64,000 nucleotides of DNA from Planctomycetota bacterium (GTDB lineage: Bacteria; Planctomycetota; UBA1135; JACQFD01). The first letter of the stretch is position 1; every line of letters begins with the position of its first letter. A program made the translations under genes and the position numbers. Positions 10,864 to 39,768 of this stretch are shown here, piece by piece. Below the pieces are notes generated by a model. The model was not told the origin of the DNA and did no database searches. It was given only the letters and a program-made list of their open reading frames with translations. The stretch lies in assembly GCA_016792805.1 (NCBI GenBank), contig JAEUHX010000087.1, positions 76,955-140,954 on the forward strand, in the 5' to 3' direction.

Positions 10864-10882
10864 AGGACGTTTGGAACGTCCT
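10864..10882. terminator. 8-bp hairpin between convergent genes (weak bidirectional terminator candidate)
   Basis: AGGACGTT-TGG-AACGTCCT lies immediately after the PRODH stop codon. No clear T-tract. Confidence 0.25.
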
Positions 10883-10965
10883 CCTAGCGCCGACCCCACT
10901 TATCGACTGGGGAGTTGCTCGCACGCGCCGATGATTTGTGCGTCAGGCGCTTGCGGAACAGGGGG

Positions 10966-11724: not shown

Positions 11725-11729
11725 GACTG

Positions 11730-19042: not shown

Positions 19043-19055
19043 GTCGAGCGCGCCT

Positions 19056-20560: not shown

Positions 20561-20641
20561 CGCATGATACCTCAGTTTTTCCGCCAGGCTTCTATCGGAC
20601 AGAGATGCTGCGACGCTTTCGCAGGTTCTTCCAGAAATGCA

Positions 20642-20665
20642 CAAGGGCGGGTAACCCCGCCCTTG
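20642..20665 (-). terminator. 10-bp perfect GC-rich hairpin between the two pilin genes (attenuator/partial terminator candidate)
   Basis: CAAGGGCGGG-TAAC-CCCGCCCTTG lies 23 nt downstream of the pilin-1 stop. The downstream T-tract is poor (GTGCATTTC). Confidence 0.4.
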
Positions 20666-20687
20666 CGCGAATGGAGCGAACTGTCTC

Positions 20688-23569: not shown

Positions 23570-23712
23570 TGCATTCCCTCTTCTATTCGGCTGCGTAGTG
23601 TCTGGCGTGCGTGCGTTGCGTGACCGTTGCGGCGCGACAACCTGTCGGCGCCGGTGTGTACCTGTAGCTTGAGCGCTCCGCGCGTTGCGCGTCCCGCTCT
23701 GCACTCGGGCGC

Positions 23713-25134
23713 CTATGCCATCGGCATCGGGAGCGCCTCAACCGTAGTGCGCCCGCGTGCGAGGGCTCGGAAGGCGCTGTCGCGCATCCGAAGCCCCGGC
23801 ACGCGCTGGTCGAGTGCGCTGCCGGTGAGACCTTCCCGAATCGCGAGAGCTGCCGCCTCGGGAGGCGAGAGCACCTCGCTAATGAGAACATTCCCGAGAT
23901 ATCCGCTCGAGCATCGGTCGCATCCCGTCGCTCGATAAAAGGAGGCTGCCGCGACCTCGCTCTCCGGAAACCCGCCGAAGCTCATCGAGAGCTCGTCGGA
24001 ACCGACAGGCTCTCGGCAGCTCGGGCAAAGCGCCCGCACGAGACGCTGCCCCACGAGGACGGGCCGCGCGGCAGCGAGCTCCACGGGGTCCACGTCGAGG
24101 TGCCTCAGTGCGGAGACGGCGTCGACGGCGCCGCGCGCCGAGACCGCAAGAATCACGTGGCGGCCGTCAGCCGCGGCACGGAAGGCGCGAACCGTGCCGT
24201 GCTTATTATGAACTCTGCCGATGAGTAAGACATCGGGGTCGTGGCGCATGGCGTCGTCGACGGCGTCTTCCCGGGAACTCGGCGACTGCGAGCTGCGAAG
24301 CGAGATCCAGGACCAGTTCTCCCGCTCCGGAGCAGGTCCGATCAACGACACAATCAGCTTCCCCTGGACAGCCGCTTCCGCTCCCAGTGCGAGAAGTGTG
24401 GATCGCGCACCTTCCGCGATCGGAACGCCAAGAACGATCATTCCGCCATGCGGGCGTGACAACGCGGTCCTGAGCTCCTTTGCTACGTGCGGCTCGAGCC
24501 CCAGGGCGTCGAGGCCGTCGAAGCTCCTGCGATGGAGCACCCGCCCGACATAACGAATACCTCCGGACCAAGCGAGGATGTCGAACTCAATGTTCGACAG
24601 GCCCGTCGGCGTCTCGACTCCACAAGTGACTGCTGAGGGCATTGGCTGGTCGGGGCGGATCCCAGCGGCGCGGCGCAGCTGTGCTTCGAGCGCGCCCGCC
24701 GCAAGCTCTCCGAGAATCCGCCGCTCGCCGCCCATCCGCGCGGTAGCGACCATCCCAGAATTTGTGATATCGAAGTGGATCGTATGTGCTCCAGCTTCGA
24801 TCGCATCGGTGAGAATGTCTGCGAGTGAAGATGCTGGGGTCGCCGACGCCGGCTCCGCTGCCGCCGGCACCGGCGGCTTGGCCGAAGGCGGATCGGCCTG
24901 CAGTTCTCCCGGAGATGTCATCATTTGCTCATCGGCGAGGACTCGATCGAGTTCGTCGAGCAGCGAACTCGGTGCAGCGCTCGGCTCACTGGAACTCTGC
25001 GTCGGCGTCGGCAGGGCCGCCCCCGCTGGCTGCTGCACCAGGGGCGGCGGCGGGAGCGCCGCGGAGTCCTCCATGGTCCGAAACACTTCGCACTCGTCCA
25101 GTGCGCGCCCGATTCCCCCGCCCGGCGCGTTCAT
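23713..25134 (-). CDS. GspE/PilB-family protein with degenerate ATPase motifs (pseudo-ATPase); Zn tetracysteine retained
   Basis: 473 aa. The fold markers are collinear with GspE/PilB: AHTIHFD in place of ASDIH, DPDVLLIG, and CPSC...CDRC. Walker A is GVPIAEGARST (no GK[ST]). The Asp box is SLIGPAPE. Walker B reads DPDVLLIGRVHN, where Glu is replaced by Arg. The His box is DGRHVILAVSARG. ATGA overlap with the pilT stop. Confidence 0.8.
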   Translation of the reverse strand: MNAPGGGIGRALDECEVFRTMEDSAALPPPPLVQQPAGAALPTPTQSSSEPSAAPSSLLDELDRVLADEQMMTSPGELQADPPSAKPPVPAAAEPASATPASSLADILTDAIEAGAHTIHFDITNSGMVATARMGGERRILGELAAGALEAQLRRAAGIRPDQPMPSAVTCGVETPTGLSNIEFDILAWSGGIRYVGRVLHRRSFDGLDALGLEPHVAKELRTALSRPHGGMIVLGVPIAEGARSTLLALGAEAAVQGKLIVSLIGPAPERENWSWISLRSSQSPSSREDAVDDAMRHDPDVLLIGRVHNKHGTVRAFRAAADGRHVILAVSARGAVDAVSALRHLDVDPVELAAARPVLVGQRLVRALCPSCREPVGSDELSMSFGGFPESEVAAASFYRATGCDRCSSGYLGNVLISEVLSPPEAAALAIREGLTGSALDQRVPGLRMRDSAFRALARGRTTVEALPMPMA

Positions 25135-26204
25135 CGCACAGACTCCTTTCGGAGAAGATTATTGAGCTCCGTCTGGTCGGGTGTTGCCGAAAGAGCCTCG
25201 TCGTAGGAGATGAGGTTCTGGCGATACAAATCCGCCAGGGATTGGTTCATGGTCCGCATCCCAAGGCGCCCGCCGGTCTGTATGAGCGAGTAGATCTGGT
25301 GAGCCTTGTTCTCGCGAATGAGCGCTCGAATGGCGGGGTTCACCACCATGATCTCCGCCGCCAGAACTCGTCCTCGGCCGTTCGTGCGCGCAAGGAGCTG
25401 CTGACAGAACACAGCCTGAAGCGAGAAGGCGAGCTGAGTTCGAATTTGTTGCTGCCGATCGGCGGGGAACACGTCCACGATACGGTTGATCGTCTGGACG
25501 CAATCCGATGTATGGAGAGTCGCAAAAGTAAGATGTCCGGTCTCCGCGAGCGTCAAGGCGGCCTCGATCGTCTCGGGATCGCGCATTTCGCCGATGAGCA
25601 CGACGTCGGGGTCCTCGCGGAGCACGGCGCGAAGCGCCTGGTTGAATCCGTGGGTGTCGGTGCCTACTTCGCGCTGATTCACGAGGCAGCCCTTGTTCCG
25701 ATGGAGGAACTCGATCGGATCCTCGACTGTAATAATGTGCTCCTGCCGCTGCGCATTAATGTGATCGACGAGCGAAGCGAGCGTCGTGCTCTTGCCCGAT
25801 CCAGTGGCGCCAGTGACGAGGACGAGCCCCTTCGGCAGCGAGCAGATTTCTTCACAAATGCGCCTCGGCAGACCAAGCTTTTCGAACTCATGGATCTCGT
25901 AGGGAATCACGCGCAGTACGGCTGCGATGGAGCCCCGCTGCATGAAGACGTTCGTTCGAAAACGGCCGAATCCGGAGAACCCGAATGAGCAGTCGAGTTC
26001 GAGGTTCTTCTCGAAGCGTGCGATCTGGTCCGGCGTGAGGATCGAGTAGATCAGCTTCCGAGCGATCTCCGGAGTGAGCGGATCGAACTCGGTCAGAATG
26101 AGCTTGCCGTCGACACGGATTCGCGGAGGCGAGCCAACGGCCAAATGAAGATCCGAACCACCACGCTGCACGAGCAGCGTGAGCAACTCCTCCATCGAGA
26201 TCAT
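25131..26204 (-). CDS. pilT: Type IV pilus retraction-type ATPase PilT
   Basis: ORF 25131..26360, start MISMEELL at 26204. Intact GATGSGKST, DPDVVLIGEMRD, TGHLTFATLHTS and the PilT signature AIRALIRENK. Confidence 0.9.
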   Translation of the reverse strand: MISMEELLTLLVQRGGSDLHLAVGSPPRIRVDGKLILTEFDPLTPEIARKLIYSILTPDQIARFEKNLELDCSFGFSGFGRFRTNVFMQRGSIAAVLRVIPYEIHEFEKLGLPRRICEEICSLPKGLVLVTGATGSGKSTTLASLVDHINAQRQEHIITVEDPIEFLHRNKGCLVNQREVGTDTHGFNQALRAVLREDPDVVLIGEMRDPETIEAALTLAETGHLTFATLHTSDCVQTINRIVDVFPADRQQQIRTQLAFSLQAVFCQQLLARTNGRGRVLAAEIMVVNPAIRALIRENKAHQIYSLIQTGGRLGMRTMNQSLADLYRQNLISYDEALSATPDQTELNNLLRKESVR

Positions 26205-26246
26205 ATTTCCCCACCCCGGGTGCCGAGGAGCCTCCTCGCAGACCCG

Positions 26247-26300
26247 CAAAAGCATCGGACGCTGCGGCGGGCGCTCTTGAGCGCCCCGACGCAGCGTCCG
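26247..26300 (-). terminator. Long GC hairpin plus T4 tract downstream of the EF-G-like gene
   Basis: Minus strand: CGGACGCTGCG-tcg-GGGCGCT-CAAG-AGCGCCC-gc-CGCAGCGTCCG, followed by ATGCTTTTGC. That is 11 bp plus 7 bp with a small internal loop. It ends only about 42 nt before the pilT ATG. Confidence 0.6.
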
Positions 26301-26323
26301 CTCGGCACCCGGCGGCCAGAAAA

Positions 26324-28390
26324 TTATTCTTCGGCTTTGTGCCCGTGGGCTGCGGCCCACTCGGAAACGATCTGCTCCTGGAGCGTCGAGGGGACCTGGT
26401 CGTAGTGTGAGAACTCAAGGGTGAAGGACCCCTCCCCCGCCGTCACGGAGCGCAGCTGCGTTGTGTATTGCTGCAACTCCTTGAGCGGCACCTGGGCCTT
26501 CACGATCGCTTGGTCGCCCACGGAATCCATACCCATGATGCGGCCGCGCCGGGTATTGAGGTCTCCGATCACGGCGCCCATCAGCGCTTGCGGAATCACA
26601 ATAGTTACATCCATGATCGGCTCGAGGAGGATCGGCTTCGCCTTGATGAATGCGTCCTTAAATGCGTTGCGCCCGGCAATCTCGAATGAAATGCCGTCGG
26701 AGTCGACCTCGTGATACTTGCCGTCGTAGACCGAGACGCTCACGTCAATCACTTCGCAGCCCGCGATGATTCCCTTCTCGAGAACGCTGCGCATCCCCTT
26801 CTCGACAGCGGGAAGGAACTGCCTCGGGACGGATCCGCCCACGACATCATCCACAAATTCGAACCCGGCGCCGCGTTCGCGCGGCTCGACGCGGCAATAG
26901 ATCTCCCCGAACTGTCCGCGTCCGCCCGATTGTTTCTTATGTCGATAGTGCCCCTCTGCCTTGCCTCGGATTGCCTCCTTGTATGCAATCTTGGGCAGAT
27001 GGGTCGACACCTCGACTCCGTACATCCGGTGGAGACGGTGCAGCTGGGTGTTGATCTGCAGATCGCTCAGACCCTCAATAATCAGCTCATGGGTCGTCGC
27101 GTCGCGGCGCAGGTGGAGTGAGGGGTCCTCGGCGACGATCTTGCGCAAGGTCTCAGCAATCTTGCCTTCGTCCTCGCGGCGCTTCGGTTCGATCGCCCAA
27201 GAGACCGTGGGCTTCGGAAGCTCCGGCTTCTTGAAATGAAACACGACGCCGCGATCTTTGCCTTCAAGGGCTGGCAGGAGCGTGTCGCCGAAGTGCAGCG
27301 GAGCCTGCATCTTTGATATCGCAATGAGCTGGCCGCTCACGCAATGATCCGTCGGCTTCCGATCCTTTCCGAAAAGTGTAAGAATCCCGCCGATCTTTAG
27401 CGGCTTTCCCGAATGGGGATCGGCGATGGGAAGGTCGTGGTCGAGCGTCCCGCGGGTCACGCGCACGTAGTGGATCTCGCCGATCGCCTTATCGGTAACT
27501 GTCTTGAAGACGAATCCGGCAAAGGGCTCAGTCGTGCTCGGCGAAACCTGCACTTCCTTGCCATCGGGCCCGACTCCAACGTGCGCGCCGAAATCAACCG
27601 CGCGCGGAAAGTACAATTCCACAAATCGAGCGAGCTCGGGGATGCCAAGCCCAGTCGCTGAGTTCACAAAAAACACCGGTACGACGGTCTTGGCGACCAT
27701 GGCCCGGGCAATGGCCTTCTCGAGAACCTCGGGGGCAACCGAGCCCGATTCCAAGTAGCTCTCCATGAGCTTCTCGTCTGCTTCGACGACGCGCTCCACG
27801 AAGGTGGCGTAGAACCCGGCTGCCCGATCCCTCAGCCCCGCGTCGGCATCGGCCGCCGGCCGGAGGACATCGACGACCTGCTTGGCGTTCGGACCGAGCG
27901 CGTTGGGAAGCGTGACCGGAACACATCGGTCGCCGAACTGCGACTGAATCGCCTCGAGCACAGTGTCGAGTTCGACGTTCGGATGGTCCATTTTGGTGAC
28001 CACGATGGCGCGCGCGACGCCGGCCGCCTCGGCGCGTCCCCACATCGTCCTTGCGTGGAACGGGATCGTTCCAACGGCAGGGATACAGATCGCCGCGGTC
28101 TCCACCACAGAGAGTCCCGCGATCGCGTCCGCGATGAACTCGGGATACCCCGGGGTATCAATCATCTCCACGATGCCGTTCTTCCGCGGCAGGTGCAGCA
28201 CCGCGAGCTGGAACGAGTGCTTCTTTTCTTTCTCTTCCGGCTCGTAATCCGCGACTGTCGTGCCGTCGGCTACGGAGCCTTTCCGAGTGATGGCGCCGTA
28301 CGCGTGGGCCAGGGATTCCGCAAGCGTTGTCTTTCCCGAGTCGGCGGGGCCGACGAGGGCAAAAGTACGAACATCGATGACCTGAGCCAT
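26324..28390 (-). CDS. Elongation factor G paralogue with non-canonical GTPase motifs
   Basis: 688 aa and collinear with EF-G through domains I-V (YHEVDSD, LEPIMDV, DLNTRRGRI). G1 is GPADSGKTT. G2 reads KKHSF in place of RGITI. G3 is DTPGYPEF, with Tyr where the catalytic His sits. G4 is TKMD. AAGGAG lies 9 nt upstream of the ATG. Confidence 0.9.
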   Translation of the reverse strand: MAQVIDVRTFALVGPADSGKTTLAESLAHAYGAITRKGSVADGTTVADYEPEEKEKKHSFQLAVLHLPRKNGIVEMIDTPGYPEFIADAIAGLSVVETAAICIPAVGTIPFHARTMWGRAEAAGVARAIVVTKMDHPNVELDTVLEAIQSQFGDRCVPVTLPNALGPNAKQVVDVLRPAADADAGLRDRAAGFYATFVERVVEADEKLMESYLESGSVAPEVLEKAIARAMVAKTVVPVFFVNSATGLGIPELARFVELYFPRAVDFGAHVGVGPDGKEVQVSPSTTEPFAGFVFKTVTDKAIGEIHYVRVTRGTLDHDLPIADPHSGKPLKIGGILTLFGKDRKPTDHCVSGQLIAISKMQAPLHFGDTLLPALEGKDRGVVFHFKKPELPKPTVSWAIEPKRREDEGKIAETLRKIVAEDPSLHLRRDATTHELIIEGLSDLQINTQLHRLHRMYGVEVSTHLPKIAYKEAIRGKAEGHYRHKKQSGGRGQFGEIYCRVEPRERGAGFEFVDDVVGGSVPRQFLPAVEKGMRSVLEKGIIAGCEVIDVSVSVYDGKYHEVDSDGISFEIAGRNAFKDAFIKAKPILLEPIMDVTIVIPQALMGAVIGDLNTRRGRIMGMDSVGDQAIVKAQVPLKELQQYTTQLRSVTAGEGSFTLEFSHYDQVPSTLQEQIVSEWAAAHGHKAEE

Positions 28391-28460
28391 CCGAGCGAGC
28401 TCCTTTACGAGCCGTCCGACGGTGCAGCCTCAACAGCACGCATCGCCGAGCTGACCGCTA

Positions 28461-28500
28461 GAGAAAAAAGAAGGGTCCAGACTCTACCGAGTCCGAACCC
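28461..28500 (-). terminator. Rho-independent terminator after the OmpA-domain lipoprotein gene
   Basis: Minus strand: GGGTTCGGACTC-GGTA-GAGTCTGGACCC-TTCTTTTTTCTC. This is a 12-bp stem whose two non-Watson-Crick positions are G.U on the minus-strand RNA but C.A on the plus strand. Confidence 0.65.
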
Positions 28501-28596
28501 TCTTTGGGCACTGGGTCGAAGGCTGCTGTCAGAGCCTCCGTCAAGGCGCCTACCGCGGGAGCAGGGATTGAATCTCTGGCTGCGTTCAGGACGGGA

Positions 28597-29343
28597 TCAG
28601 TCGATCCAGATTTCGACGCGGCGGTTCTTCGACTTCTCTTGCTTGCCGGAGCCAGCGGCGACGGGCGCGTACTCGCCGAACGCAGCGGGAACCATGCGCT
28701 TCTGAGAAATCCCCACGGCAGAGAGCTCCGCCACAACAGCCACGGCGCGCTCGAAAGAAAGGTGGCGATTGTCCTTGAACTTGTCGCGCGACTTCTTGGG
28801 CGGATCCGCGTCGGTGTGCCCCGCAACCCAAAGACGCGCGTCGGCGGGAAGGCTCTTCGCGAGCGCAGCTCCGACGTCGCGAACGGCCTTCTTGCCCTGT
28901 GCCGTCAGCTCAGCGCTGCCGGGGTTGAACGCGTCTCCGAGCGCGAGAGTGACGCAGACCTTGCCGTCGCGCACTTCAACGTTGCCCTTCGAATTGCCCA
29001 TCGACGTGGAGAGCTTCTTCGCGAGGGCGGCAACCTCCGCGCTCCCGCGGCCGGCGACCGCGTCCGTCGGTTGGCCGATTGTGCCCGCAGCGGCGACCGG
29101 TCGAGCGGCGGACTGCTCGCGAGCAACGCGCGCGGCCTCCTCGGCCGCGCTCGCCTTCTGCTGAAGCGTCGTCTCGCGGGCTCGCGCTTCGTCGCGCTCC
29201 GCCTTCACCTGGTCGAGTTCATTCTCGAGCTGGTGATTGGAATTCGCGAGGTCGTCGTTGCGCCGCTTCAGATCGGAGTAGCACGACGGCATCAGAGGCA
29301 CGGCGAGAAATAAAGCCACAGAGAGAACTTGTGTGAATCGCAT
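28597..29343 (-). CDS. Lipoprotein with coiled coil and C-terminal OmpA/MotB-like peptidoglycan-binding domain
   Basis: ORF 28597..29532, start MRFTQVLSVALFLAVPLMPSC at 29343. Coiled-coil segment (NHQLENELDQVKAERDEARARE). The OmpA_C-like tail reads AGHTDADP...NRHLSFERAVAVVAEL...NRRVEIWI. Confidence 0.8.
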   Translation of the reverse strand: MRFTQVLSVALFLAVPLMPSCYSDLKRRNDDLANSNHQLENELDQVKAERDEARARETTLQQKASAAEEAARVAREQSAARPVAAAGTIGQPTDAVAGRGSAEVAALAKKLSTSMGNSKGNVEVRDGKVCVTLALGDAFNPGSAELTAQGKKAVRDVGAALAKSLPADARLWVAGHTDADPPKKSRDKFKDNRHLSFERAVAVVAELSAVGISQKRMVPAAFGEYAPVAAGSGKQEKSKNRRVEIWID

Positions 29344-29353
29344 CGGGTTACTC

Positions 29354-29399
29354 CGGATCCTGCAACGGATCCAAAGATGAGTGGCAAACGAGCGGATCC
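29354..29399. promoter_or_regulatory. Cluster of three CGGATCC palindromes directly upstream of the OmpA-domain lipoprotein start
   Basis: CGGATCC at 29354-29360, 29366-29372 and 29393-29399, with a fourth at 29543-29549. The first two can pair with each other and abut the GGAG Shine-Dalgarno-like sequence. Confidence 0.35.
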
Positions 29400-29553
29400 G
29401 CCGGAGCAGCGTGCGCGCCGATTCGGAGCCTGTGGGCTCGTGCGCCATGGAGAAACGTGAATGGGTTCGTATTGAGGAGATGATCTGAGAAATTACAAAA
29501 ATCGCCCGGGGACCATGGAGTTCGGAGTTCACAGCGGCCGCTCGGATCCTCCA

Positions 29554-30714
29554 TTATCCGTGGAGGCCGGAGAACGCCGCAAATACGCTCAGAACTTCGC
29601 GCCGATTCAAAAGCACAATTGCAGCCCCCGCCGCGAGGAAGGGCCCGAAAGGAATCAGCCGCCCCGCCGCATTCGCGACGGACCAGGCGGTCGGCCTCCG
29701 TTCGATGCGGTGGCTCCGCGGCCGTTGACGAGCCCGTCGACGCTGCACCAGAAAAACGTAGAGGCGCGCGATATTGGCAATCCCGAGGAGCGCTCCAAGC
29801 ACCGAGGCCACCGCAAATGCCAAGAGGGACCCCTCGGGTCCTACGCAACCGCCGATTGCTCCCTGCAGCTTCACATCTCCAAATCCCATCGCTTCGCGCT
29901 CATTTCGGATGCGGAGTTCACCGCCGGGCTCAATTGGCTGGGCTGTATCGCGAACCAGCACGGGATTTGTGGCGGTCGGCGCCTTCCACAGAATCTGCTG
30001 GTCCTCGACGAGCCGCTGGACCTCGGCCGAAGAGCGCTTCATACCGGCCGATGCCAAGTAAGTGTCCAGGCGACGGGGCCTTGCGTCGGCCGGAACCTGG
30101 AGAATCTCAACGCTCGAGTAGGCCCATGTGCCTGCTGCACGGATAAGTGCCACACTGGCTGCACCCGTTCCGACGCCGAGCACGCTCACCACCAGCGCGC
30201 GCAGCCGCTCATGCTCAATCCAGGGTGCGAGCTGGCGTGCGCCCCAAGTGTCGGCCAAGAGATGTGGAGCGATGAGCGCCAGCAACGGCCCGAAGAGGAG
30301 TCCCGGAATGGTGATCTCGTCAGGGAGGATCGTGAGTTCGAGATCGATCAGAGAGAGCGCGAGCAGCGCCGCGAGTGCAATCCAGATAAAGATCAGTGCC
30401 GGCGAATAGCCTGGGCCGGGTTGCATCCACCAAGCCCACAAGAAGAGCAAACTGCAGGAAAGCTCCACGACGGGATAGCGCGCCGAAATCGGAGTTCTGC
30501 AGCGCCGGCATCGGGCACCCAGCAGCACCCAGGCGACCACCGGAAGATTGTCATACCAAGCGATGTCCGCGCTGCAGCGAGGACAGCGGGAGCGACCGAG
30601 TAGCGATCGCCAGCCGCCCTCCGGCAAGCGATGGACGACAACGTTGACGAACGAGCCTACAGCCAATCCAAAGAGGGCCGCGAATATGCCGAATACAAGA
30701 GTGACGCCGTCCAC
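29554..30714 (-). CDS. pilD: Prepilin peptidase / N-methyltransferase (A24 family) with large cytoplasmic insertion
   Basis: 386 aa with a GTG start. CPRC...CRRC zinc motif. First catalytic Asp in LSLIDLE (D124), second in GFGDVKL (D280), and a C-terminal IPFGPFL motif. Confidence 0.85.
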   Translation of the reverse strand: MDGVTLVFGIFAALFGLAVGSFVNVVVHRLPEGGWRSLLGRSRCPRCSADIAWYDNLPVVAWVLLGARCRRCRTPISARYPVVELSCSLLFLWAWWMQPGPGYSPALIFIWIALAALLALSLIDLELTILPDEITIPGLLFGPLLALIAPHLLADTWGARQLAPWIEHERLRALVVSVLGVGTGAASVALIRAAGTWAYSSVEILQVPADARPRRLDTYLASAGMKRSSAEVQRLVEDQQILWKAPTATNPVLVRDTAQPIEPGGELRIRNEREAMGFGDVKLQGAIGGCVGPEGSLLAFAVASVLGALLGIANIARLYVFLVQRRRARQRPRSHRIERRPTAWSVANAAGRLIPFGPFLAAGAAIVLLNRREVLSVFAAFSGLHG

Positions 30715-30783: not shown

Positions 30784-32586
30784 TCACCTGGTCGAGATTT
30801 CGAAGACGGCTCGGTCGACAACCGGAGCCACGAGTTCGGGGCCACTGCCGGCGCGCAGGAGTGAGATCTCGATTTGAAACTGCATCCACTGTCCGGGTGG
30901 GAGTCTCTCGGCCGGATCGGCCCATGGGGTTGCCGACCGGGGATCCATTGCGGCGGTCTCCGGATTCGGGGCCGGAAGGGAGCGTGCCGTGCGCACGCGG
31001 AGCGCCACGTCGCCGCTTCCCATGGCCGATTCGGCTCTTGCACCAACGATTGTGACAAGGCGGCCACCCATGCGGATCCACTTGGATGTGCTCACATAGC
31101 GAAGATTTGGCCGGGAGCGGAAGCTGGTGGCGTCGAGGAGCGGTGTGCGCTGGAACTCGCGCTCTTTCACTCCGCTCAGATCACCTGCAAGCCCCATCCC
31201 CGCAGGTGCAATGATCCGAAGCTTCGTGCATTCGATGCGGGCGCTGGCGGCGACCCTCACCGCGCCCCCTGCCACGAGGAGCAAGGTCCCAGGAGTTGTG
31301 ATCCTTCCCGATATGTGGAGATCTCCTCCTGCGACAAGGGCGAGATCCCACGGCCCCATGAGACCATCGACTCGCTCCCAAGCGGGCTCGTGGGTTCCCT
31401 CTCGTCTCGCGGAGAGCACACCGCGCAGGTCGAGACTGCCGGCGCATCCAATGCAGGACGGCAGCACAAGCCTCCCTTCGTCCGTTGGAAGGGAATCAAT
31501 CGAAGAGGCTTGGAGCAACCTCGTTCCGAGCTCGCCGCGCAACGCGATGTGGCCATCGCGACCGTCGCCGGCGGCCTTCGGGAAATGCGCGCGCAGCGCG
31601 CCGTCTCCTGCCCATGTGGCCGTTGCCGTCTGCGGGTCGAATGTCTCCGGCGTCGACCGGTCATGAACATAGAGAAATTCTTCAATAATTGAACTCGGCT
31701 CATAGCTCGGCGCCGGGATGATTTCGAATCGCGGCTGTCGGCCGTCCAGAAGGCGGCACGGATTGCCGCCGAAGTCGGTGACCCGATCGGACACTTCAAG
31801 CGAAACCGCCGAGTACCCGTCCAGCGGCGCCACCGTTCGGAGCTCGATGCGCGCAGAGGAAGTGTCGTTGCGGAGCACCGGATCCAACAAGGCAATGGGC
31901 CGACGACTGCCGCGGTCGTCGATCCCGATGAGCTGAAAATTGTCTGCGGTCACTCGATGGGGCGCCAACGGCTCATCTGTGGCAAGCTCAAGCGCTGCGC
32001 CGCGATGCCATAGGACACTTGCGATCTCGCCTCCGCCCGCAGCCGGATCGCTGGCACCATAGACCGTGAGCACGGGCCCTTTCCACGGAGAATGGTCCAC
32101 GAGAAGGGCGAGCGTGGAGTCCTGGCGCAGCGGAGCTGTGGTGAACTCGAACCGATGGGATTTCGAGAGCACCTGCCCGCGTGAGGACCGAACTCCCGAC
32201 GCCCTCGGAAAGCCCATGATCTCAACGGTATAGGTTCGCCCCGGCTGAAGTCCTCCATCGGCGTAGTCGACCCGGGAAGGGAGCGCGGGCAAGAACCTTA
32301 CTCTTCCGTTGGGAAGCACGTCGAGCTTCCCAGCAGTGACCCGCTCTCCGGGCGCGGAATCGGCGAGAGCGATTCGAATGCCGCCGCCATGGACGCTTCC
32401 GGGATCGACCGGCTGATTGAAGACCCAGGTCAGCTCGCCATTGACGGGGTGCCCCGTGGCACCGCCCTGGAGGAAATTGGTGAGGTCGAAAGGAGCCTCA
32501 GCGGGCGGCTGGCAAGCAGTGAGCGGACAGGCGACCAATGCCAGCGCGCAGAGCAGAATCCTGAAATGAGAGCGGTCCACGGACAC
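30784..32586 (-). CDS. Lipoprotein D: SbsA-Ig-like domains plus beta-helix-like region; short paralogue of the giant lipoproteins
   Basis: 600 aa with a GTG start. Signal ILLCALALVACPLTAC. Ig-like segment LTWVFNQPVDPGSV...GRTYTVEI. C-terminal QWMQFQIEISLL...PVVDRAVFEI resembles the tails of lipoproteins A, B and C. Confidence 0.75.
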   Translation of the reverse strand: MSVDRSHFRILLCALALVACPLTACQPPAEAPFDLTNFLQGGATGHPVNGELTWVFNQPVDPGSVHGGGIRIALADSAPGERVTAGKLDVLPNGRVRFLPALPSRVDYADGGLQPGRTYTVEIMGFPRASGVRSSRGQVLSKSHRFEFTTAPLRQDSTLALLVDHSPWKGPVLTVYGASDPAAGGGEIASVLWHRGAALELATDEPLAPHRVTADNFQLIGIDDRGSRRPIALLDPVLRNDTSSARIELRTVAPLDGYSAVSLEVSDRVTDFGGNPCRLLDGRQPRFEIIPAPSYEPSSIIEEFLYVHDRSTPETFDPQTATATWAGDGALRAHFPKAAGDGRDGHIALRGELGTRLLQASSIDSLPTDEGRLVLPSCIGCAGSLDLRGVLSARREGTHEPAWERVDGLMGPWDLALVAGGDLHISGRITTPGTLLLVAGGAVRVAASARIECTKLRIIAPAGMGLAGDLSGVKEREFQRTPLLDATSFRSRPNLRYVSTSKWIRMGGRLVTIVGARAESAMGSGDVALRVRTARSLPAPNPETAAMDPRSATPWADPAERLPPGQWMQFQIEISLLRAGSGPELVAPVVDRAVFEISTR

Positions 32587-32629
32587 AGCCCATCCTACGG
32601 ATCGAGGTGGGTTCTTGAGCCGCTCCGTC

Positions 32630-32663
32630 GAAAAGACGCGGGCCGTGCATTGGCACGGCCCGC
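32630..32663 (-). terminator. Terminator/attenuator-like hairpin between lipoprotein B and lipoprotein D genes
   Basis: Minus strand: GCGGGCCGTGC-CAAT-GCACGGCCCGC-GTCTTTTCG, an 11-bp perfect stem. It lies 188 nt after the lipoprotein B stop but only about 44 nt before the lipoprotein D start. Confidence 0.55.
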
Positions 32664-32850
32664 ACGATGAGTCGTTTGTCGGGGCGCTAGCAGGTCGTTG
32701 AGAAGCTGCCGTTGAGCAATTCGAAGTTCACTATTCGCAAAGTCGAGGAGGGACGCGTGGGACGTAGCAAGGTGTTACGTCGATCGCGGCTCAACCATGA
32801 GATCACGAGAAGCGGACGAGAACTGCCGGAATGAATACTTCTGCGGCCTG

Positions 32851-35800
32851 TTAGTTGAACTGGAACGGAACCTTCAGGAATCGAACTCGCGGCTTCGAGC
32901 TGGAGGCCGTAACCGCACCGCCCAACGCAACGTCGAAGGTCACCGTGAACCGAATGAAGCGCTTGCCTGTGAGAATGCTCATGTCGGAGGTGCCAACGCC
33001 GGTCGAATCCTGGACCGCTGTTGGAACGATCGACGCCAGATTCACATTTCCAGTGGCGTCGGCATCGGCGCCTTGGAACTGGATCTGAACGGCCGCGAAC
33101 GAGCTGGTGCTCGGTGGCAGGAAATCGTTGATTTCGCCGGCGCTCGTGAAGGTTGAAACCTCAAAGCTCCGAGTCACCAGCTGCCACGCAGGAGTACCGC
33201 TCAGGCCCGCGTTGAGCGCCGTCGGATTCCCCGAGCTGCCGTTGTCGGTCGTGAGAACGATGTTATTCCCGGATTCGGTTGCTCCGATCACCGTGCCGGC
33301 GTTCGAGCCGACGCGGACGCGATCAAGAATCATCGTCTTGGGCTCCACCGCCTTCAGGTTTCCGCCCGCGATCAGATCGAGCTTCGCAAGTGTGATCGAG
33401 TTGGCCGTGACGCTCGACGCGTTCACAGTGCCCGACACGCCCACGATCGGTGCAACAAATCCCTGGGCATCGGTCAGGATCTTACCGACCGGGCCGAGGC
33501 CTGAAGCCGGGAGAGCGAGGCCCGCGAACTCATAGGTGGGCTTGCCCGCCGCCAAGGGAAGGCCCGTGTCGAACCAAGTCGAACGGACCCGGCTCTGGGA
33601 GCCGAACCCCGGCAGCAGCAGCAGCGGGGCCGGGTCAAAGTTGGCCGGCAACGGCTGGGCGCTCGCGGTACCGCCGCCGAGGAACGCCGTCTTATAGAGC
33701 CCGGTCGCGGGATTGATCGGCGCATGGAGCTGCACGAGTCCCTTGCCGCCGCGGCCGCCATGGCCAAGCCCCAGCGAGGTAGTCGGCGGAACGGGATCCT
33801 GCTGACCGGAATTCGCGCCGCCTCCTCGTCGTCCACCGCGAGCGAGAATGGTGCCGGAGGTCGCTCCGATGAATGCATCGATCGAATCGGCGCTTTGAAT
33901 AATGATCGTGCCGCCAGCGCCACCGCCAGACCCGCCGCCGATTCGGTCAAGGAAGATGGTGTTCTCACCGGCAGCACCATTGCCGCCGGAGGCAGAGATC
34001 GTCCCGGCAACCGAAACCTTGCCGAGAGCCTGAATCGAAAGGATGCCGCCGCCGCCGCCGCCACCGGCGCCCTTCTTGTCAACGGCTCCGAAATTGGGAT
34101 TGGTGATCGTCGTCGAACCAATGGCATTGCCGCCGCCGCCACCACCCTGGCCACCGAGCGGAGTCACAATTTCTCCGGTCAGGTTATCGCCACGCCCCAT
34201 CAGGACGACGAGGTCGCCCGTCGCCGCTGTGACCGGCAGCGGTGCCGAGAAGTTCACTGCTGCCAGATCTCCCGTCACGCTGGAGATCTGGCGAACCAGA
34301 ACCTTCGAGCGGAAGCACTGGGTCGGGTCCAACGCGGTCGTGCCCGTCGTGCAAGCGGCAAGTGTGTCTTCCCAGGTGCCCGCGGTTCGATAGATCGCGA
34401 TGAATCGACCGACATCCGACGTATTGAAAATCGGCGAAGTCGCGCGCACTTGAGTCGTGGAGCCGGTCGTGATGCAGGTGCCCCGCGTCACGATGGTCGT
34501 GCCGACGAAGTCATCGGTCGGAGACGTAGTGACAAAGTTGAGCGGGCCAGGTGCGCCGCCTTGAGGGAACGTCGCCGGGTTCACCGCACTCACACCCTGA
34601 GGAGCAATGCAGGAGCCGATCGTGAACGACGCCGTCGTGGGGCCGTCATTTCCCTTCTCGCCCGCCGTCGTATGGCTGCCGCCGCCGCCACCGGCCGGGT
34701 GGCGATCTTCGTTCTCAAAGCACTGCTGCCCGTTCACCACCGGCACGAGCGCCGACTCGCCGCCGAAGCCACCGCCGTTCAACACATTGAACGGACCGGC
34801 TCCTTGACCACCCTTCACGCTCGACTGGCTCGTCACCGGATTACCAACGCCGCCCGAGCCGCCGCCGCAGATTCCGGCGCCACCCGGCTCCGAGAACTGC
34901 GCGGCCGTGAGAAGTGTCTGGACGTCGGAAGCGTCGGCTCCGGTCACCAGGATCTGGCCGCCGGCGTCCACCTGCACCGTTTCATTGGCAAAGATCTGAA
35001 GCGGATTCAGACCCTGCCCGACGAGTCGACCGCCGTTGAAGACGCGCAGCCGGCGCAGGAAGATCCGCCCGTTCACAAATGTCTGCTGAACCGGGGATCC
35101 GATCGCACTCTTGAGGGTGAGCGTCGCGGCGCTCGTATCGACGAAGATCGTCTGACCGGATAGCACCTCGAGATCGTTATCCGTCGGCTGGCCGCCGAAG
35201 GAGAAGCCGGCTTCGAGGAATCCTTGGCTGTTCCACTCCGCCGCCGGGAATCCGAAGCCGGGGTTCTGGTCCTCGCGCGCCGCGGAATCAAAACTCTCAA
35301 CGATCGCGTCGTAGTCCGGAGTCGACGCAGTCTCTACGATGGGCTCGGTCCCGAAGCTCGCGGGGATCGCCGTTGGGAATAGTGCAGTCTCTCCGGTGAT
35401 GTCACTAAATCCTTGGGAGATCAGGAATCGGATCCGACGACCGCTCGGCAGAAGGCCCAGCGGAGTCACACGAACCTTGGCTCCAGCCGCCGTGCAATTC
35501 TCGATCAGCGCGACGCTGACAGGGATCGACGCGAAGCTCGATCCTGTCGTATTGAACTGGAGGCTGATGTTCGAAGACGTAATGTTTGTGGCCGCCGGAT
35601 CGACAGGCTGATTGAACGTCACATCGAAGTAGACGGACGGGCCAACGAACTTATTCGTGGGGATCGTGGCGCCCGCTGTGAAATCGCTTTCCACAAGGTC
35701 GCCCGCGCTGTTCGGCGTCACAAAAACAACTCGCGTGACCTGCGGCGACTCGTTCACCTTGGGGTCGTAGAACACTCCGGACCCTGCGGGCTTCGTCACG

Positions 35801-36297
35801 AAGGTCGAGGTCTTTCCGACGACGAGCCCTTCCCCCTTTGTGGAAAGGACCGTTGTCGCTCCCGCCTGGGTGCTCGACGGAATATTGATCACATAGGGGA
35901 TTCCGCCGGCCTGGAGCCCGCCGCCGCCCGTCGAAGACGGGCAGGTGGGCTGGAAGATAACCTTCTTTTTGTTGGCATTATCGAACGAGAAGGTTCCGAG
36001 GGCCGGCACCGCAGTTCCCTGCTGAACGATGGAAATCGACGCGGGCGTCACCGTGTCCGGCCGGACCTCTTTGTTGAAGAGAATCTCGATGGGGCGATTG
36101 ACCTCCCAATCCTGTCCGGGCTGAGGCAGGATCGATTCCACGAGGAAGTCGGCGCTGTCCGGCCCAGGATTCCCACCCGGATCGATCACATCATTGAACA
36201 AGGACGAGCCGCCGCCACCGCAGCCGCTCAGGAGGGCACTGGAAGCGGTGCCGATCAGCAGGCTGAGAGAGAGACGCGCGTTGCGGGAGAGGGTCAT
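32851..36297 (-). CDS. Giant surface lipoprotein B (paralogue of A)
   Basis: ORF 32851..36483, start MTLSRNARLSLSLLIGTASSALLSGC at 36297, followed by GGGGSSLFN. Ig-like domain (IEILFNKEVRPDTVTPASISIV). Poly-Gly motifs KGAGGGGGGGILSIQALGKVSVAGTISASGGNGAAG. C-terminal KRFIRFTVTF...VRFLKVPFQFN. Confidence 0.8.
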   Translation of the reverse strand: MTLSRNARLSLSLLIGTASSALLSGCGGGGSSLFNDVIDPGGNPGPDSADFLVESILPQPGQDWEVNRPIEILFNKEVRPDTVTPASISIVQQGTAVPALGTFSFDNANKKKVIFQPTCPSSTGGGGLQAGGIPYVINIPSSTQAGATTVLSTKGEGLVVGKTSTFVTKPAGSGVFYDPKVNESPQVTRVVFVTPNSAGDLVESDFTAGATIPTNKFVGPSVYFDVTFNQPVDPAATNITSSNISLQFNTTGSSFASIPVSVALIENCTAAGAKVRVTPLGLLPSGRRIRFLISQGFSDITGETALFPTAIPASFGTEPIVETASTPDYDAIVESFDSAAREDQNPGFGFPAAEWNSQGFLEAGFSFGGQPTDNDLEVLSGQTIFVDTSAATLTLKSAIGSPVQQTFVNGRIFLRRLRVFNGGRLVGQGLNPLQIFANETVQVDAGGQILVTGADASDVQTLLTAAQFSEPGGAGICGGGSGGVGNPVTSQSSVKGGQGAGPFNVLNGGGFGGESALVPVVNGQQCFENEDRHPAGGGGGSHTTAGEKGNDGPTTASFTIGSCIAPQGVSAVNPATFPQGGAPGPLNFVTTSPTDDFVGTTIVTRGTCITTGSTTQVRATSPIFNTSDVGRFIAIYRTAGTWEDTLAACTTGTTALDPTQCFRSKVLVRQISSVTGDLAAVNFSAPLPVTAATGDLVVLMGRGDNLTGEIVTPLGGQGGGGGGNAIGSTTITNPNFGAVDKKGAGGGGGGGILSIQALGKVSVAGTISASGGNGAAGENTIFLDRIGGGSGGGAGGTIIIQSADSIDAFIGATSGTILARGGRRGGGANSGQQDPVPPTTSLGLGHGGRGGKGLVQLHAPINPATGLYKTAFLGGGTASAQPLPANFDPAPLLLLPGFGSQSRVRSTWFDTGLPLAAGKPTYEFAGLALPASGLGPVGKILTDAQGFVAPIVGVSGTVNASSVTANSITLAKLDLIAGGNLKAVEPKTMILDRVRVGSNAGTVIGATESGNNIVLTTDNGSSGNPTALNAGLSGTPAWQLVTRSFEVSTFTSAGEINDFLPPSTSSFAAVQIQFQGADADATGNVNLASIVPTAVQDSTGVGTSDMSILTGKRFIRFTVTFDVALGGAVTASSSKPRVRFLKVPFQFN

Positions 36298-36461
36298 GTG
36301 CAGAAATCTATTCCGAGTAGTGCGACGCGAAGGTTCTGTGTCGTTGTGGGCCGTGAGGCTCGGCGAGGCGATCTCAGTGACTCCTTTTGGAGTGGAACTC
36401 ACAGATCGTTTTTCGTCTGTCGGCGGCGAGCCGCCGATGCGCTCGCGCCGAAAGCCGATGT

Positions 36462-36501
36462 CGATCCTCGGGGCGAGCCGCATCGACCGCCCCGAGGATC
36501 G
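36462..36501 (-). other. 14-bp perfect inverted repeat hairpin immediately after the lipoprotein C stop
   Basis: CGATCCTCGGGGCG-(12 nt)-CGCCCCGAGGATCG lies 10 nt downstream of the TAA at 36511-36513. There is no good T-tract, so it may be an RNA-stabilising or processing element or a weak terminator. Confidence 0.4.
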
Positions 36502-36510
36502 AGGGTTGGG

Positions 36511-39500
36511 TTACGGCGCCGAGAATCCGATGCCGACCGCCGACAGCGACGGAGCGACATCGTTCACGATGTCGGACGTGAACGTGAAGCGCATCTGGAG
36601 GAATCGCTTCGCATTCAGAAGCGTAATGTTGTTGGTGAAGTTCACACCTCCGCTGGCGCCTGTTCCCTTTGTGATCGGAACAACGCCGCTGGGCGTCGCA
36701 CCGCACACAACGCCGGTCGGAAGCTGCGGGATCGTTGGGAAGATGCCGCCCTCAGCCCCCGCGTAGAACTCGCCATAGACGTCAAAGCAGCGCGCGTCGC
36801 CCGTGAAGCCGGCTCCGGCGGAGTCTGCGCCGCGGAATTCGATAGTCGCGGATGTGTTGGTCGGCTGAATCGCGGGCAACATCACAATCCAGGATGGATC
36901 AAAGATCGGATTGTTGATACCCACAGTGGTCAAGTTGTAGAAGTGCGTGTAGACGCGCGAGACCTTGACCGCGAAATCGATCTGCGCCGGGTACACCTCC
37001 GGTCCACCGGGCGGCGTCTTGGTACCTGCGGGGCCCTGAGTCGAGCCTGGCGGGAAATAGCCGCCGTTCGGAACGAGGCCGCCAGGTGCCACATCCGGCG
37101 TAACCGTCTGGGGGGTGCCGCCCTGGTCGAGGCCGCCGGTCGAGAAGACTCGGAAATTGGGCTTCGACGACGAGTTCAAGGCCACGTTCACCTGGAAGCC
37201 GTTCAAGCCCTTCGTGTTGCTGTCCTGCGCCGGATAGACGCGGCAATCAAACAGAAGCGGCAGTCCCACGGAGGGCACTTGGTTGGGCTTGTAGGGATGG
37301 TCGACGGTGAGGTTGTTCGCATTCGTCGGCGGCGGAATGAAAGGCAACAGTGCGTAGTACTGTTGAGGATTGACACCGAAGCCGTTCTGTCCGGCGAACT
37401 TGCCGGCGCCGTACGAGCTGTCACGCCATGTGAACGTCGACGTGAATTTCGGGTAGGGGAACATGGTCACACCCGACGGGGAGAGGAACGCCGCGTTCGG
37501 GTTGATCACATATTGGCCGTCGTAGACGCGCTCGGGCGGATGATCGGCCGCCTCGAAAACGTTGGCGATGAACGAAGTCTCCTGGAGGCCCGATGCCGGG
37601 AAGACCGGCAGCAGGCTCATCGGATCCACGAACTCATCGGGGAACTGCCTCGAGTGCGCCAGATCGATTCGGAATCGACCGAAGAAGTCGTTCTGTACGA
37701 TTCCACCAAACGGCGTCCAGGCCATGCGCTCGACGTCAAGGTCGGTATCCGAGATCGAATTGATCGCCAGGTTCAGGTCGATGTGGCGATAGACAGTCAT
37801 CAGGCGGCTTCCGAGGTTCGAAAGCGGAGTCTGCACCGCCTGGTTGAATGCCTGCATCGATCCCACAAACACGTTGGATCCATCGGCATTTCGCGAGAAG
37901 TGCGTCGGCGGCCGCGGCCCAATGAAGCCGGCGGCCGGCTGCGTCACCTGTCCGCTCACCAGCTGCGCTGGCGGCGTCGCCTCGAAGAGCGAGTCGAAGC
38001 GCAACGAAAGGCCGCGCGTGCTGTTCGTCGCGGCAGCGGGATTCACTCGGAACTTCATCTTGAATCCGAACTGGCTGATCGGCAGCGAGTTGCCCACCAG
38101 GTCGGTCACGCCTGTCGATCCTCCGACGACGTAGAAGATGTAATCCGCGGTCTGCGGCGCTCCCGAATCATTGCGGTAGGGCAGAACCGGAATGAACTTC
38201 AACGACCGCTGATCGGGAGAGGACACCACATTTCCGATCGCCATATCAAACGCCTGTGCAGTCGTCGGCGTGATCTCGGTCAGTGTGGTCGGGTTCATCA
38301 CGACGCAGAAATTCTCGATCGAGTTGACCTTCGAGAGATTCACGGGCTTCGTGAACCGCACGGTGAAGGTCGAATTCGGGTCGATGTTCGTGAGCGGAAT
38401 TGTGATCGGCAGAGGAAGCGGCTGAACCACGACGAAGCACCCGGCGAAGTTGCTCATCGTCGCTTCGTCGTAGAGCGTCGTGAGAAGCGCCTGATCGGTG
38501 GTATTGAATGTGGACGCCTGAAGATAATTGACCGTCACTGTATAGGTCGGGTCGGCGTCTCCGATCGATGCCGGATCGATGGCGACGACTGTCGCGAAGC
38601 GGGTCGCCCCGGAACCGCCCTGCTGGATCGAATCGCCGACTCGGATCGAGATATCGCAGGCTGTGTTCACATAAGCGATCTTGATCGTCCGCTGGTCGAC
38701 CGAGACGATCTCATTCACCGTCATCGGCTGCGAGCCGATGATGCGCGGCGGAGTCGGGTCGGAGAGGAATCCCTGGTTCGCGTCGGAAGGTGCGCCGCCG
38801 GCGCGGAAGACACGCACCACACCGTCCCCCGTCGTCGTCGACGAGAACTTCGTGATGGAGGCATTGGGGTTCAGCGCCGATCCGTCCTTGCCGAGGATGA
38901 TGCGCGTCACGCCCTTTGCGAGGTCGTAGCGCGAGGGCAAGAACACCGCGATGTTGTAGGTGGCCGTCGAAATGCTCGGGGGAAGACCCTGAGAGTTCAG
39001 CGGGAGGGCCTGCGGGTTCATCTTGTTCCCCACCGCAATTGCCTCCTCGATTCGCGAATCGTCGAGGGCGCTGACCGTCGGGTCGATGATCAGCTCGCGG
39101 GGCGATTCGGGCTTGAAGATGAATCGGCCCTGGAACGGGTCGGGGGGCAATTGGCCCGACGAAGTCGCCGATCCGACGAAGAGTCGCACCGTGTCGGGGC
39201 CCACCGATTTGGGATTGATTGCCCGGTCGAAGATCAGGCGGAACGAAGCATCTCGCGGAACTTCCGTGAACGGCGGAACGCTGGAAGGCCCAGCCGTTGC
39301 GATGGAGCCGAGCGATCCCGTCACCTCAGCGAATGCCCGCTGGAAAAGTGACTTCGGCGCGGCGTCAAACTGGGTGCCGATCGTCAAAATCACCGCGCCG
39401 GTCACTACGTCCGATTGGAGCGTCAGCAGCACCGGAGTCCCGGTCGTCGAAGTCAGCGTCTTGCTGATTCCGACGTTCTCCGACACGAGCTGATCCAGGT

Positions 39501-39768
39501 AGAACTGGTCCGTCACGGTGACACCGTTGACGACCTTGGTGATGGGCGTCGAATTGCCGGCGCCGTCGAGGGCGCGAATGTCGACGAGGCGACCCCAGGA
39601 GAGGTTCTTCAGAGTCAGACCGGCAGCCGGTGTGTTGTTATTTGAGCCGCCAGCTGCGGGGCCGACGTTCTGATTCGAGGTGCCTCCGCCACCACAGGCG
39701 GGAAGAACCGCCGCGACCGTGGCGAGAAAGAGCGTCGCGATTCCAAGGCGCCCAACGCTGAATCCCAT
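36511..39768 (-). CDS. Giant surface lipoprotein C (divergent paralogue; Ig-like domains, no poly-Gly core)
   Basis: ORF 36511..40128. Best start is MGFSVGRLGIATLFLATVAAVLPAC at 39768 (GAGG 7 nt upstream), followed by GGGGTS. Ig-like segments (FRLIFDRAINPKSVGPDTVRLF and FTVRFTKPVNLSKV). C-terminal KRFLQMRFTFTS...AVGIGFSAP. Confidence 0.8.
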   Translation of the reverse strand: MGFSVGRLGIATLFLATVAAVLPACGGGGTSNQNVGPAAGGSNNNTPAAGLTLKNLSWGRLVDIRALDGAGNSTPITKVVNGVTVTDQFYLDQLVSENVGISKTLTSTTGTPVLLTLQSDVVTGAVILTIGTQFDAAPKSLFQRAFAEVTGSLGSIATAGPSSVPPFTEVPRDASFRLIFDRAINPKSVGPDTVRLFVGSATSSGQLPPDPFQGRFIFKPESPRELIIDPTVSALDDSRIEEAIAVGNKMNPQALPLNSQGLPPSISTATYNIAVFLPSRYDLAKGVTRIILGKDGSALNPNASITKFSSTTTGDGVVRVFRAGGAPSDANQGFLSDPTPPRIIGSQPMTVNEIVSVDQRTIKIAYVNTACDISIRVGDSIQQGGSGATRFATVVAIDPASIGDADPTYTVTVNYLQASTFNTTDQALLTTLYDEATMSNFAGCFVVVQPLPLPITIPLTNIDPNSTFTVRFTKPVNLSKVNSIENFCVVMNPTTLTEITPTTAQAFDMAIGNVVSSPDQRSLKFIPVLPYRNDSGAPQTADYIFYVVGGSTGVTDLVGNSLPISQFGFKMKFRVNPAAATNSTRGLSLRFDSLFEATPPAQLVSGQVTQPAAGFIGPRPPTHFSRNADGSNVFVGSMQAFNQAVQTPLSNLGSRLMTVYRHIDLNLAINSISDTDLDVERMAWTPFGGIVQNDFFGRFRIDLAHSRQFPDEFVDPMSLLPVFPASGLQETSFIANVFEAADHPPERVYDGQYVINPNAAFLSPSGVTMFPYPKFTSTFTWRDSSYGAGKFAGQNGFGVNPQQYYALLPFIPPPTNANNLTVDHPYKPNQVPSVGLPLLFDCRVYPAQDSNTKGLNGFQVNVALNSSSKPNFRVFSTGGLDQGGTPQTVTPDVAPGGLVPNGGYFPPGSTQGPAGTKTPPGGPEVYPAQIDFAVKVSRVYTHFYNLTTVGINNPIFDPSWIVMLPAIQPTNTSATIEFRGADSAGAGFTGDARCFDVYGEFYAGAEGGIFPTIPQLPTGVVCGATPSGVVPITKGTGASGGVNFTNNITLLNAKRFLQMRFTFTSDIVNDVAPSLSAVGIGFSAP

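Follow-up and report, generated by a model that had tools for sequence, protein, structure and literature searches.

Four large predicted envelope proteins with lipoprotein-type signals encoded among type IVa-pilus-like genes in Planctomycetota

Four genes in a conserved pilus gene neighbourhood

In a 64,000-nucleotide (nt) stretch of a Planctomycetota contig (JAEUHX010000087.1, positions 76,955 to 140,954; hereafter the window, meaning the whole stretch), which derives from a bioreactor metagenome and has a G+C content of ~63%, four minus-strand genes encode large proteins that carry lipoprotein-type signal peptides and lie close to the genes of a type IVa-pilus-like machine. We refer to the proteins as A to D. 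Translation bore out the open reading frames (ORFs) of lipoprotein A (14219..17515, 1098 amino acids [aa], signal-peptidase-II-type signal LSGC), lipoprotein D (30784..32586, 600 aa, lipobox LTAC), lipoprotein B (32851..36297, 1148 aa, lipobox LSGC) and protein C (36511..39768, 1085 aa, lipobox LPAC in the window genome), and their summed coding length of 11,805 nt agrees with the ~12 kb given in an earlier reading by a model that had seen only the letters of the window (the sequence-only reading). Orthologues are named "hypothetical protein" or "Ig-like domain-containing protein" in public records, literature searches found no publications on these proteins, and all named sources of their homologues are Planctomycetota.

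To describe the neighbourhood, the genomic contexts of B, C, A and D homologues were fetched and their ORFs were classified with purpose-built hidden Markov models (HMMs). The order PyrB-C(-C)-B-D-PilD-OmpA-EFG-PilT-PilB-PilC-pilin...A-...-DHH was found in about ten independent Planctomycetota contigs (gene-order loci: the window, L001, L003, L004, L006/L011, L008, L012, L013, L014, L015, L017 and L019) from groundwater, marine, bioreactor and other metagenomes, in which orthologues of B, C and D were as little as 28-33% identical. D stood immediately upstream of pilD in every context seen, and the two genes overlapped by 1-4 nt in L004, L015 and L019; an overlap of this kind in three lineages suggests co-translation. 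In L006, L008 and L014, A orthologues stood at the corresponding place in the genome. The block was kept in L012 despite a different upstream flank (no PyrB), and in L017, a marine contig, C-B-D-PilD-PilT-PilB-PilC-pilin was contiguous and the OmpA-like and EF-G-like genes were missing, so that pilT directly followed pilD (8001-12128), which suggests that both are dispensable inserts in the cluster. The linkage to pilT, a degenerate pilB, pilC and pilD proposed in the sequence-only reading is therefore strong, and the scatter over genomes without pilus linkage that would have spoken against it was not what we found, because the same order recurs in about ten independent contigs. We regard this conserved gene order as the strongest evidence for a putative functional tie to the pilus. 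Attempts to find further loci added little: a search from the close C alignment returned only three metagenome-assembled genomes (MAGs) that were already known, and a search from the A alignment returned 600 false candidates through poly-Gly patterns and no true one.

In the window, the linked pilus block extends from pilD to the pilins (19844..30714, minus strand) and, on Pfam assignments, comprises pilD itself (prepilin peptidase, 29554-30714), an ompA-like lipoprotein gene (28597-29532), an EF-G-like gene (26324-28390), pilT (25131-26360), the degenerate pilB (23713-25134), pilC (22337-23704), a gene for a TPR protein (21416-22336) and two pilin genes (20688-21419 and 19844-20644), all on the minus strand. 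A second group on the same strand (57868-63028), ~18 kb upstream of C, contains pilM (62000-63028; Pfam PilM_2, 2e-47), a probable pilN (61300-62055; no Pfam hit), a pilO-like gene with a T2SSB-like tail (59878-61281; Pfam PilO, 3.6e-8) and a secretin gene (57868-59844; Pfam Secretin, 8.4e-38). With pilM/N/O and the secretin upstream, the type IVa-pilus-like set of the window is essentially complete, although housekeeping genes divide it. Between the secretin and C, the minus strand encodes RNase E/G, DnaB, BamA, Skp, LpxC-FabZ, a Gfo-type oxidoreductase and PyrB; beyond the pilins lie HEAT and TatD genes on the opposite strand, then A, which is its own transcription unit downstream of the pilin genes, followed by an amidohydrolase and the DHH phosphoesterase. 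PilB itself varied in length among the loci, being 565-577 aa with MshEN in the deeper lineages L008, L014, L015 and L017, and a PilB-like protein of 462-486 aa with only a weak T2SSE match at the same position in the window, L001, L003 and L006. The lipoprotein genes were present in lineages with the long and with the short form.

Relatedness, domains and a shared C-terminal module

Pairwise BLASTP among the four proteins was near noise: no E value was better than 0.001, and the best matches lay only in the Big_5 region (B-D, 1e-3; A-D, 4e-3) or in the signal peptide (B-C, 0.01). Taken alone, these results would wrongly suggest four unrelated proteins, as the relatedness is visible only with profiles. 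Homologues were gathered for B (12), A (40), C (22) and D (361 representative clusters), and comparison of the family alignments with hhalign matched B to A end to end over 865 columns (probability 100%, E 2e-55), so that A, proposed earlier as the closest relative of B, proves to be its full-length paralogue. D matched both B and A (99.5%, E ~1e-22), residues 1-386 of D aligning with the first ~460 residues of the longer proteins, a stretch that comprises the signal, both Ig-like domains and the beginning of the core. For C, matches to the other families were limited to Ig-like domains (44-72%) and to the C-terminus, where B was matched at 85%. On this profile evidence A, B and D are one old superfamily, in which D is evidently a short form without the Gly-rich core. 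C is related to them more distantly and has only modules in common with them, so that the description of C, B and D as "three tandem paralogues" in the sequence-only reading overstates the place of C. In a tree of the A/B superfamily, the clade of genes at the B position had a support of 100 and that of genes at the A position a support of 81, each with deep branches, which indicates that the duplication predates these lineages and that each copy kept its place.

In the predicted layout of A, the signal is followed by a Gly/Ser tether that contains SLFN, then by Ig-like domains of the Big_5 type, an all-beta core rich in Gly and, last, the C-terminal module; B has the same domain order, D is the counterpart of the N-terminal ~460 residues of A/B joined to the C-terminal module, and C is an all-beta multidomain protein. 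Pfam matches to Big_5 (PF13205) exceeded the gathering score of 23.6 bits in A (25.2 bits, E 2.8e-5), B (34.9 bits, 2.7e-8) and D (31 bits, 4.4e-7). For C there was no Pfam hit, Big_5 included, and NCBIfam was likewise empty; the only Ig-like signal was internal and weak, a profile match (65-72%) between residues ~445-600 and the Ig regions of A and D, although precomputed annotation assigns Big_5 to some distant homologues of C. The claim that all four proteins start with Big_5-like domains is thus upheld for A, B and D but not for C. NCBIfam searches of all four gave no hits, neither Pfam nor NCBIfam identified an enzymatic domain in any of them, and the four families are covered by no Pfam or NCBIfam family beyond Big_5.

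AlphaFold2 models of B (mean predicted local distance difference test [pLDDT] 71, from a 39-sequence A+B alignment) and C (pLDDT 72, predicted template modelling score 0.68) were essentially all-beta, with disordered N-termini at a pLDDT of ~30 (B 1-46, C 1-34). In the B model, Ig-like domains at ~50-315 were predicted with a pLDDT of 85-93, followed by the Gly-rich core at ~460-950, of low to moderate confidence and with short strand triplets after each poly-Gly run, and by a C-terminal beta module at ~1037-1147. The C model ended in a sandwich (928-1085, pLDDT 80-90). Shifted secondary hhalign matches suggest that the Gly-rich core is internally repetitive. Foldseek searches of the PDB with the B model recovered only tandem Ig-like domains (LdtMt2/5, SbsC, Sap and the MG domains of alpha-2-macroglobulin; E 1e-8 to 1e-4), covering ~270-440 columns of ~1100 residues at a query-normalised template modelling (TM) score of ≤0.13, and those with the C model gave weak matches to SbsC and CopC-like sandwiches. 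Foldseek against the PDB thus detected no solved analogue of the Gly-rich core or of the C-terminal module, and a PDB sequence search with the family profiles returned nothing significant. Against viral models, Ig-like domains were matched again, together with a phage "glycine-rich domain" protein at low TM, which we treat as a lead only. The Gly-rich region (B ~460-575; A+B profile 467-575) also had a weak match to the Gly-rich N-terminal domain of Obg (E 0.005-0.013); matches of this type may be compositional.

Two side observations concern the core and its setting. P0015 (1403 aa, NCBI "FG-GAP repeat protein", from a Planctomycetes MAG) matches the B core (362-907) at 85% identity in its residues 569-1114, which are flanked by FG-GAP repeats, not by Ig-like and C-terminal modules; either the core domain has genuinely been shuffled or the assembly is chimeric. 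An FG-GAP protein is also encoded between B and D in L013.

To evaluate the similar C-terminal pattern that the sequence-only reading had attributed to all four proteins, the C-terminal 100-150 residues were cut from the family alignments and compared by hhalign, with reversed alignments as controls. The matches A-B (96%, E 2e-9), B-C (97%, against 85% in the whole-family comparison; E 5e-10), B-D (91%, E 9e-7) and A-D (84%, E 8e-6) stood out from the controls, all of which were ≤0.4%; A-C was not significant and C-D (12%, E 0.0025) was not significant alone. The similarity therefore persists in proper alignment with B as the link, although it is not seen in every pair. In all fetched DNA, HMMs of the module matched only ORFs of the A-D families, and matches across families fell exactly at the C-termini. 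In B, the hub of this cross-family similarity, the module lies at 32854..33180 (minus strand; hhalign and model secondary structure) and consists of a strand "vQIQFQGA", a variable loop, a short helix "SDMSIL", a strand "KRFIRFTVTF" and a terminal strand PRVRFLKVPFQF. The consensus is a strand v-I-x-F-[QR]-G-A, a variable loop, a short helix, a strand [KR]-[FY]-[ILV]-[RQ]-[FM]-x-[FV]-x-F and a terminal strand, and the same order of elements was found in the alignments and in the models of B and C. Pfam searches of the isolated C-terminal 130-170 residues found nothing even at E 10. Judged from the profiles, a C-terminal module of ~80-100 residues that is common to all four proteins appears to be real.

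Lipobox, tether and the conserved N-terminal peptide

Near the N-terminus of all four proteins, an n-region with basic residues and a hydrophobic h-region precede a lipobox, for which the general pattern is [LVI][ASTVI][GAS]C (A, VALSGC; B, ALLSGC; D, PLTAC; C, VLPAC, with an atypical Pro at -2). A heuristic lipobox scan of all long ORFs of the window returned five candidates, namely A, B, C, D and the OmpA-like protein, and among these the lipobox was followed by CGGGG only in A, B and C. The sequence PACGGGGTS reported for C was confirmed; D carries LTAC followed by QPPA, with no Gly4 and a Pro/Ala-rich stretch next. Across families, the lipobox Cys was an invariant column in 40 members of the D family, where Pro/Ala-rich sequence follows, and was present in nearly all full-length members of the A and B families. 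In the C family, 9 of 23 members have a lipobox, the others having an ordinary signal peptide that ends around "AQGP". C is present as a tandem duplicate in two related MAGs (L001/L010, 2816-9857; L011, two famC ORFs), the copies being ~50% identical and carrying ordinary signal peptides, not lipoboxes; in L001, the additional gene located between C and B is this duplicate, and its reading as an orthologue of A was rejected on that ground.

At the lipobox, A and B encode the same peptide, SGCGGGGSSLFN, with the six synonymous codon differences noted in the sequence-only reading (6 of 12 codons, confirmed by codon comparison). These amount to 9 nt, all nine of them synonymous, in a stretch with 9.5 synonymous sites, and synonymous divergence is saturated. 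If changes had fallen at random, the chance that all would be silent is ~3e-4 by codon count and 6e-6 by nucleotide count. That all differences are synonymous, and that the motif is kept in orthologues, supports the earlier suggestion of purifying selection on the peptide rather than recent gene conversion. The post-lipobox motif of B (SGC-GGGG-SSLFN, 36187..36225, minus strand) and its equivalent in A (~17375-17413) take the general form C-(G/S)3-6-S-L-[FL]-N, which was kept in 7 A and 7 B orthologues of the close clade that are 44-58% identical overall; more distant A/B relatives retain just a Gly/Ser-rich stretch. In ~400 kb comprising the window and related loci, the motif was confined to orthologues of A and B.

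The "invariant Gly4" of the sequence-only reading did not survive the orthologue comparison: the run varies from 3 to 6 Gly/Ser residues across A/B orthologues, is missing from D, and many C orthologues have no lipobox at all. Variable length and absence from D and many C orthologues likewise contradict a role of Gly4 as a sorting signal. We therefore discarded Gly4 as the conserved signal and take the run for a spacer of variable length, with S-L-[FL]-N behind it as the fixed part. A flexible spacer of variable length with a short conserved motif would fit the N-terminal data of A and B, and in the A and B proteins of one clade S-L-[FL]-N after the tether probably serves recognition or packing and is not spacer.

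Possible roles and competing explanations

Long co-inheritance with pilus genes and the fixed place of D upstream of pilD make it most likely that A to D are dedicated accessory proteins, and on the conserved arrangement of the genes we favour, with about even confidence, the reading that they are dedicated partners of a planctomycete pilus system; any exact role is much less well supported than the partnership itself. A, B and D are ancient paralogues and C a more distant relative; on this reading, all of them would be envelope proteins with a type II (lipoprotein) signal peptide. The Cys would be acylated and a disordered tether of ~20 residues (Gly/Ser-rich in A, B and C, Pro/Ala-rich in D) would hold the protein at the membrane. 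Two Big_5 Ig-like domains would serve as a stalk, the Gly-rich, repeat-containing all-beta core of A and B would be the working head, and the beta module of ~80-100 residues would close all four proteins. The genes have been inherited together with those of the type IVa-pilus-like machine (pilMNO-secretin, pilD, pilT, pilB, pilC and pilins) since before divergence to ~30% identity. As lipid-tethered partners at the outer membrane or surface, the proteins may act with the pilus in binding ligands or substrata, or be located where it exits the outer membrane.

A number of observations weigh against such a partnership, and several of them would fit general envelope, S-layer-like or polysaccharide-binding surface proteins whose genes are held in a frozen neighbourhood with no joint function, an explanation that we consider unlikely but deserving of real weight. 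The gaps between C and B (213 nt) and between B and D (264 nt) both contain strong hairpins, and gaps and hairpins together suggest separate transcription units. Eight nt after the C stop lies a near-perfect stem of ~20 bp (CUCGAUCCUCGGGGCGG...CCCCGAGGAUCGA; 36461-36503, minus strand) with no clear U-tract, and folding of the whole 213-nt C-B gap gave z = -4.7 versus shuffles; ~45-50 nt before the D start, an 11-bp GC-rich stem followed by UCUUUUC (32629-32663, minus strand) resembles an intrinsic terminator and leaves little promoter room for D and pilD. A simple terminator and promoter scan of 29.3-40.6 kb performed at chance level. Unrelated housekeeping genes (pyrB, the EF-G paralogue, tatD and the DHH phosphoesterase gene) are conserved within the same block, so that part of the synteny may be inertia. 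Two opposite-strand genes separate the pilins from A, which is a separate unit, and a divergent clade of the A family (P0045 and relatives, 8-Mb genome) lies beside lexA/clpB, away from any pilus genes. More than half of the C orthologues appear to carry an ordinary signal peptide, and Pfam, NCBIfam and Foldseek gave no fold or family link to PilY1, TsaP or pilotins. A general surface role is also in keeping with the best fold matches, which are the S-layer proteins SbsC and Sap, and with a weak, sub-threshold match of the N-terminus of A to the Chondroitinase B beta-helix (E 0.034, 13.6 bits vs a cutoff of 24); no PDB fold match found by Foldseek covers the core, which is modelled at low to moderate confidence. 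What inertia explains poorly is that the C-B-D-PilD adjacency survives flank changes (L012 and L017) at ~30% protein identity, and that the overlap of D with pilD in three lineages suggests co-translation.

It is also conceivable, if somewhat less probable than a frozen neighbourhood, that A to D are cargo of the machine, exported over the outer membrane and lipid-anchored in the manner of pullulanase PulA, with the C-terminal module or SLFN being recognised. A single C-terminal module common to four proteins encoded beside pilD, pilT, pilB and pilC, and seen in the DNA sampled only on these four families, would suit export as cargo, as would the lipoprotein signals on all four, and PulA is an established surface lipoprotein that depends on a type II secretion system (T2SS). 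However, the machine looks like a type IVa pilus (PilT, PilM, PilO-like protein and secretin), with no GspC, GspL or GspM seen by Pfam in the window; to our knowledge, T2SS cargo has no common linear or modular signal; many C orthologues have no lipobox; and Pfam and NCBIfam found no enzymatic domain in any of the four. Least probable of all, in our estimation, is that the proteins are not lipid-anchored, the Cys being an ordinary signal-peptide end or a disulfide partner and the proteins being soluble in the enlarged periplasm of planctomycetes. The frequent lack of the Cys in C orthologues and the Pro at -2 of the C lipobox point that way, but the boxes of A, B and D follow the canonical pattern L-[ST]-[GA]-C, and the Cys is invariant in the 40 D-family members and kept in nearly all full-length A and B proteins.

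A more specific version of the pilus partnership, which we think decidedly improbable though a little less so than the absence of a lipid anchor, would make A to D surface or outer-membrane components of the planctomycete fibre apparatus (crateriform structures) that bind polysaccharide. The C-terminal module would then dock the four proteins to each other or to the secretin, with ligand binding left to the Gly-rich heads of A and B. Pili-like fibres emerge from crateriform structures and bind polysaccharide, and the molecular players of this apparatus were described as unknown in 2017 and again in a 2025 review (PMC5394234; PMC12673574).

The four proteins can be compared with several described systems. 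Big_5/SbsA-Ig-like proteins (SbsC and the BIg domains of LdtMt2/LdtMt5) resemble them in the Big_5 domains of A, B and D and in the Foldseek matches of the B model, but have no counterpart of the Gly-rich core or of the C-terminal module, and none is pilus-linked. Like PulA-type surface lipoproteins, A to D are predicted lipoproteins encoded beside genes of the T2SS/type IV pilus superfamily; unlike them, they have no glycoside hydrolase or other enzymatic domain, and the neighbouring machine is type IVa-pilus-like. The neisserial surface lipoproteins TbpB and fHbp have a poly-Gly tether after the lipidated Cys, comparable to the short poly-Gly/Ser linker directly after the lipobox Cys here (disordered at 26-46 in the B model), but they have no sequence or fold relation to these proteins, and S-L-[FL]-N is specific to the A/B clade. 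PilY1/PilC adhesins are similar in size (~1000-1200 aa), in being encoded with type IV pilus genes and in a plausible adhesive role, and differ in that A to D have lipoprotein signals and not an association with minor pilins; no PilY1/Neisseria_PilC domain was matched in A to D by Pfam at E ≤ 0.1, and no beta-propeller was present in the B and C models. A C-terminal sorting domain of the type IX secretion system (Por_Secre_tail type) had no NCBIfam or Pfam match in the four proteins either.

Type IV pili are well described in Proteobacteria and hardly in Planctomycetota, where pili-like fibres have been implicated in polysaccharide capture. In this setting, four uncharacterised families that hold a fixed position around pilD, pilT, pilB and pilC over deep divergence offer testable candidates for lineage-specific pilus accessory proteins. 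Large Ig-domain envelope lipoproteins are already familiar; what is new are two undescribed modules, the Gly-rich all-beta core and the C-terminal beta module, along with the post-lipobox motif C-(G/S)3-6-S-L-[FL]-N and an unusually conserved link to pilus genes. Were that link only positional, the families would still be an example of deep paralogy that is seen by profiles and missed by BLAST.

One minor correction concerns the region between the second pilin gene and A. A 346-aa ORF on the minus strand (17630-18670) was not matched by Pfam, lacks a counterpart in related loci and is probably spurious; the real genes lie on the plus strand and encode a HEAT-repeat protein and a TatD DNase (18032-19042 and 18912-19835), as in L006, L008 and L014.

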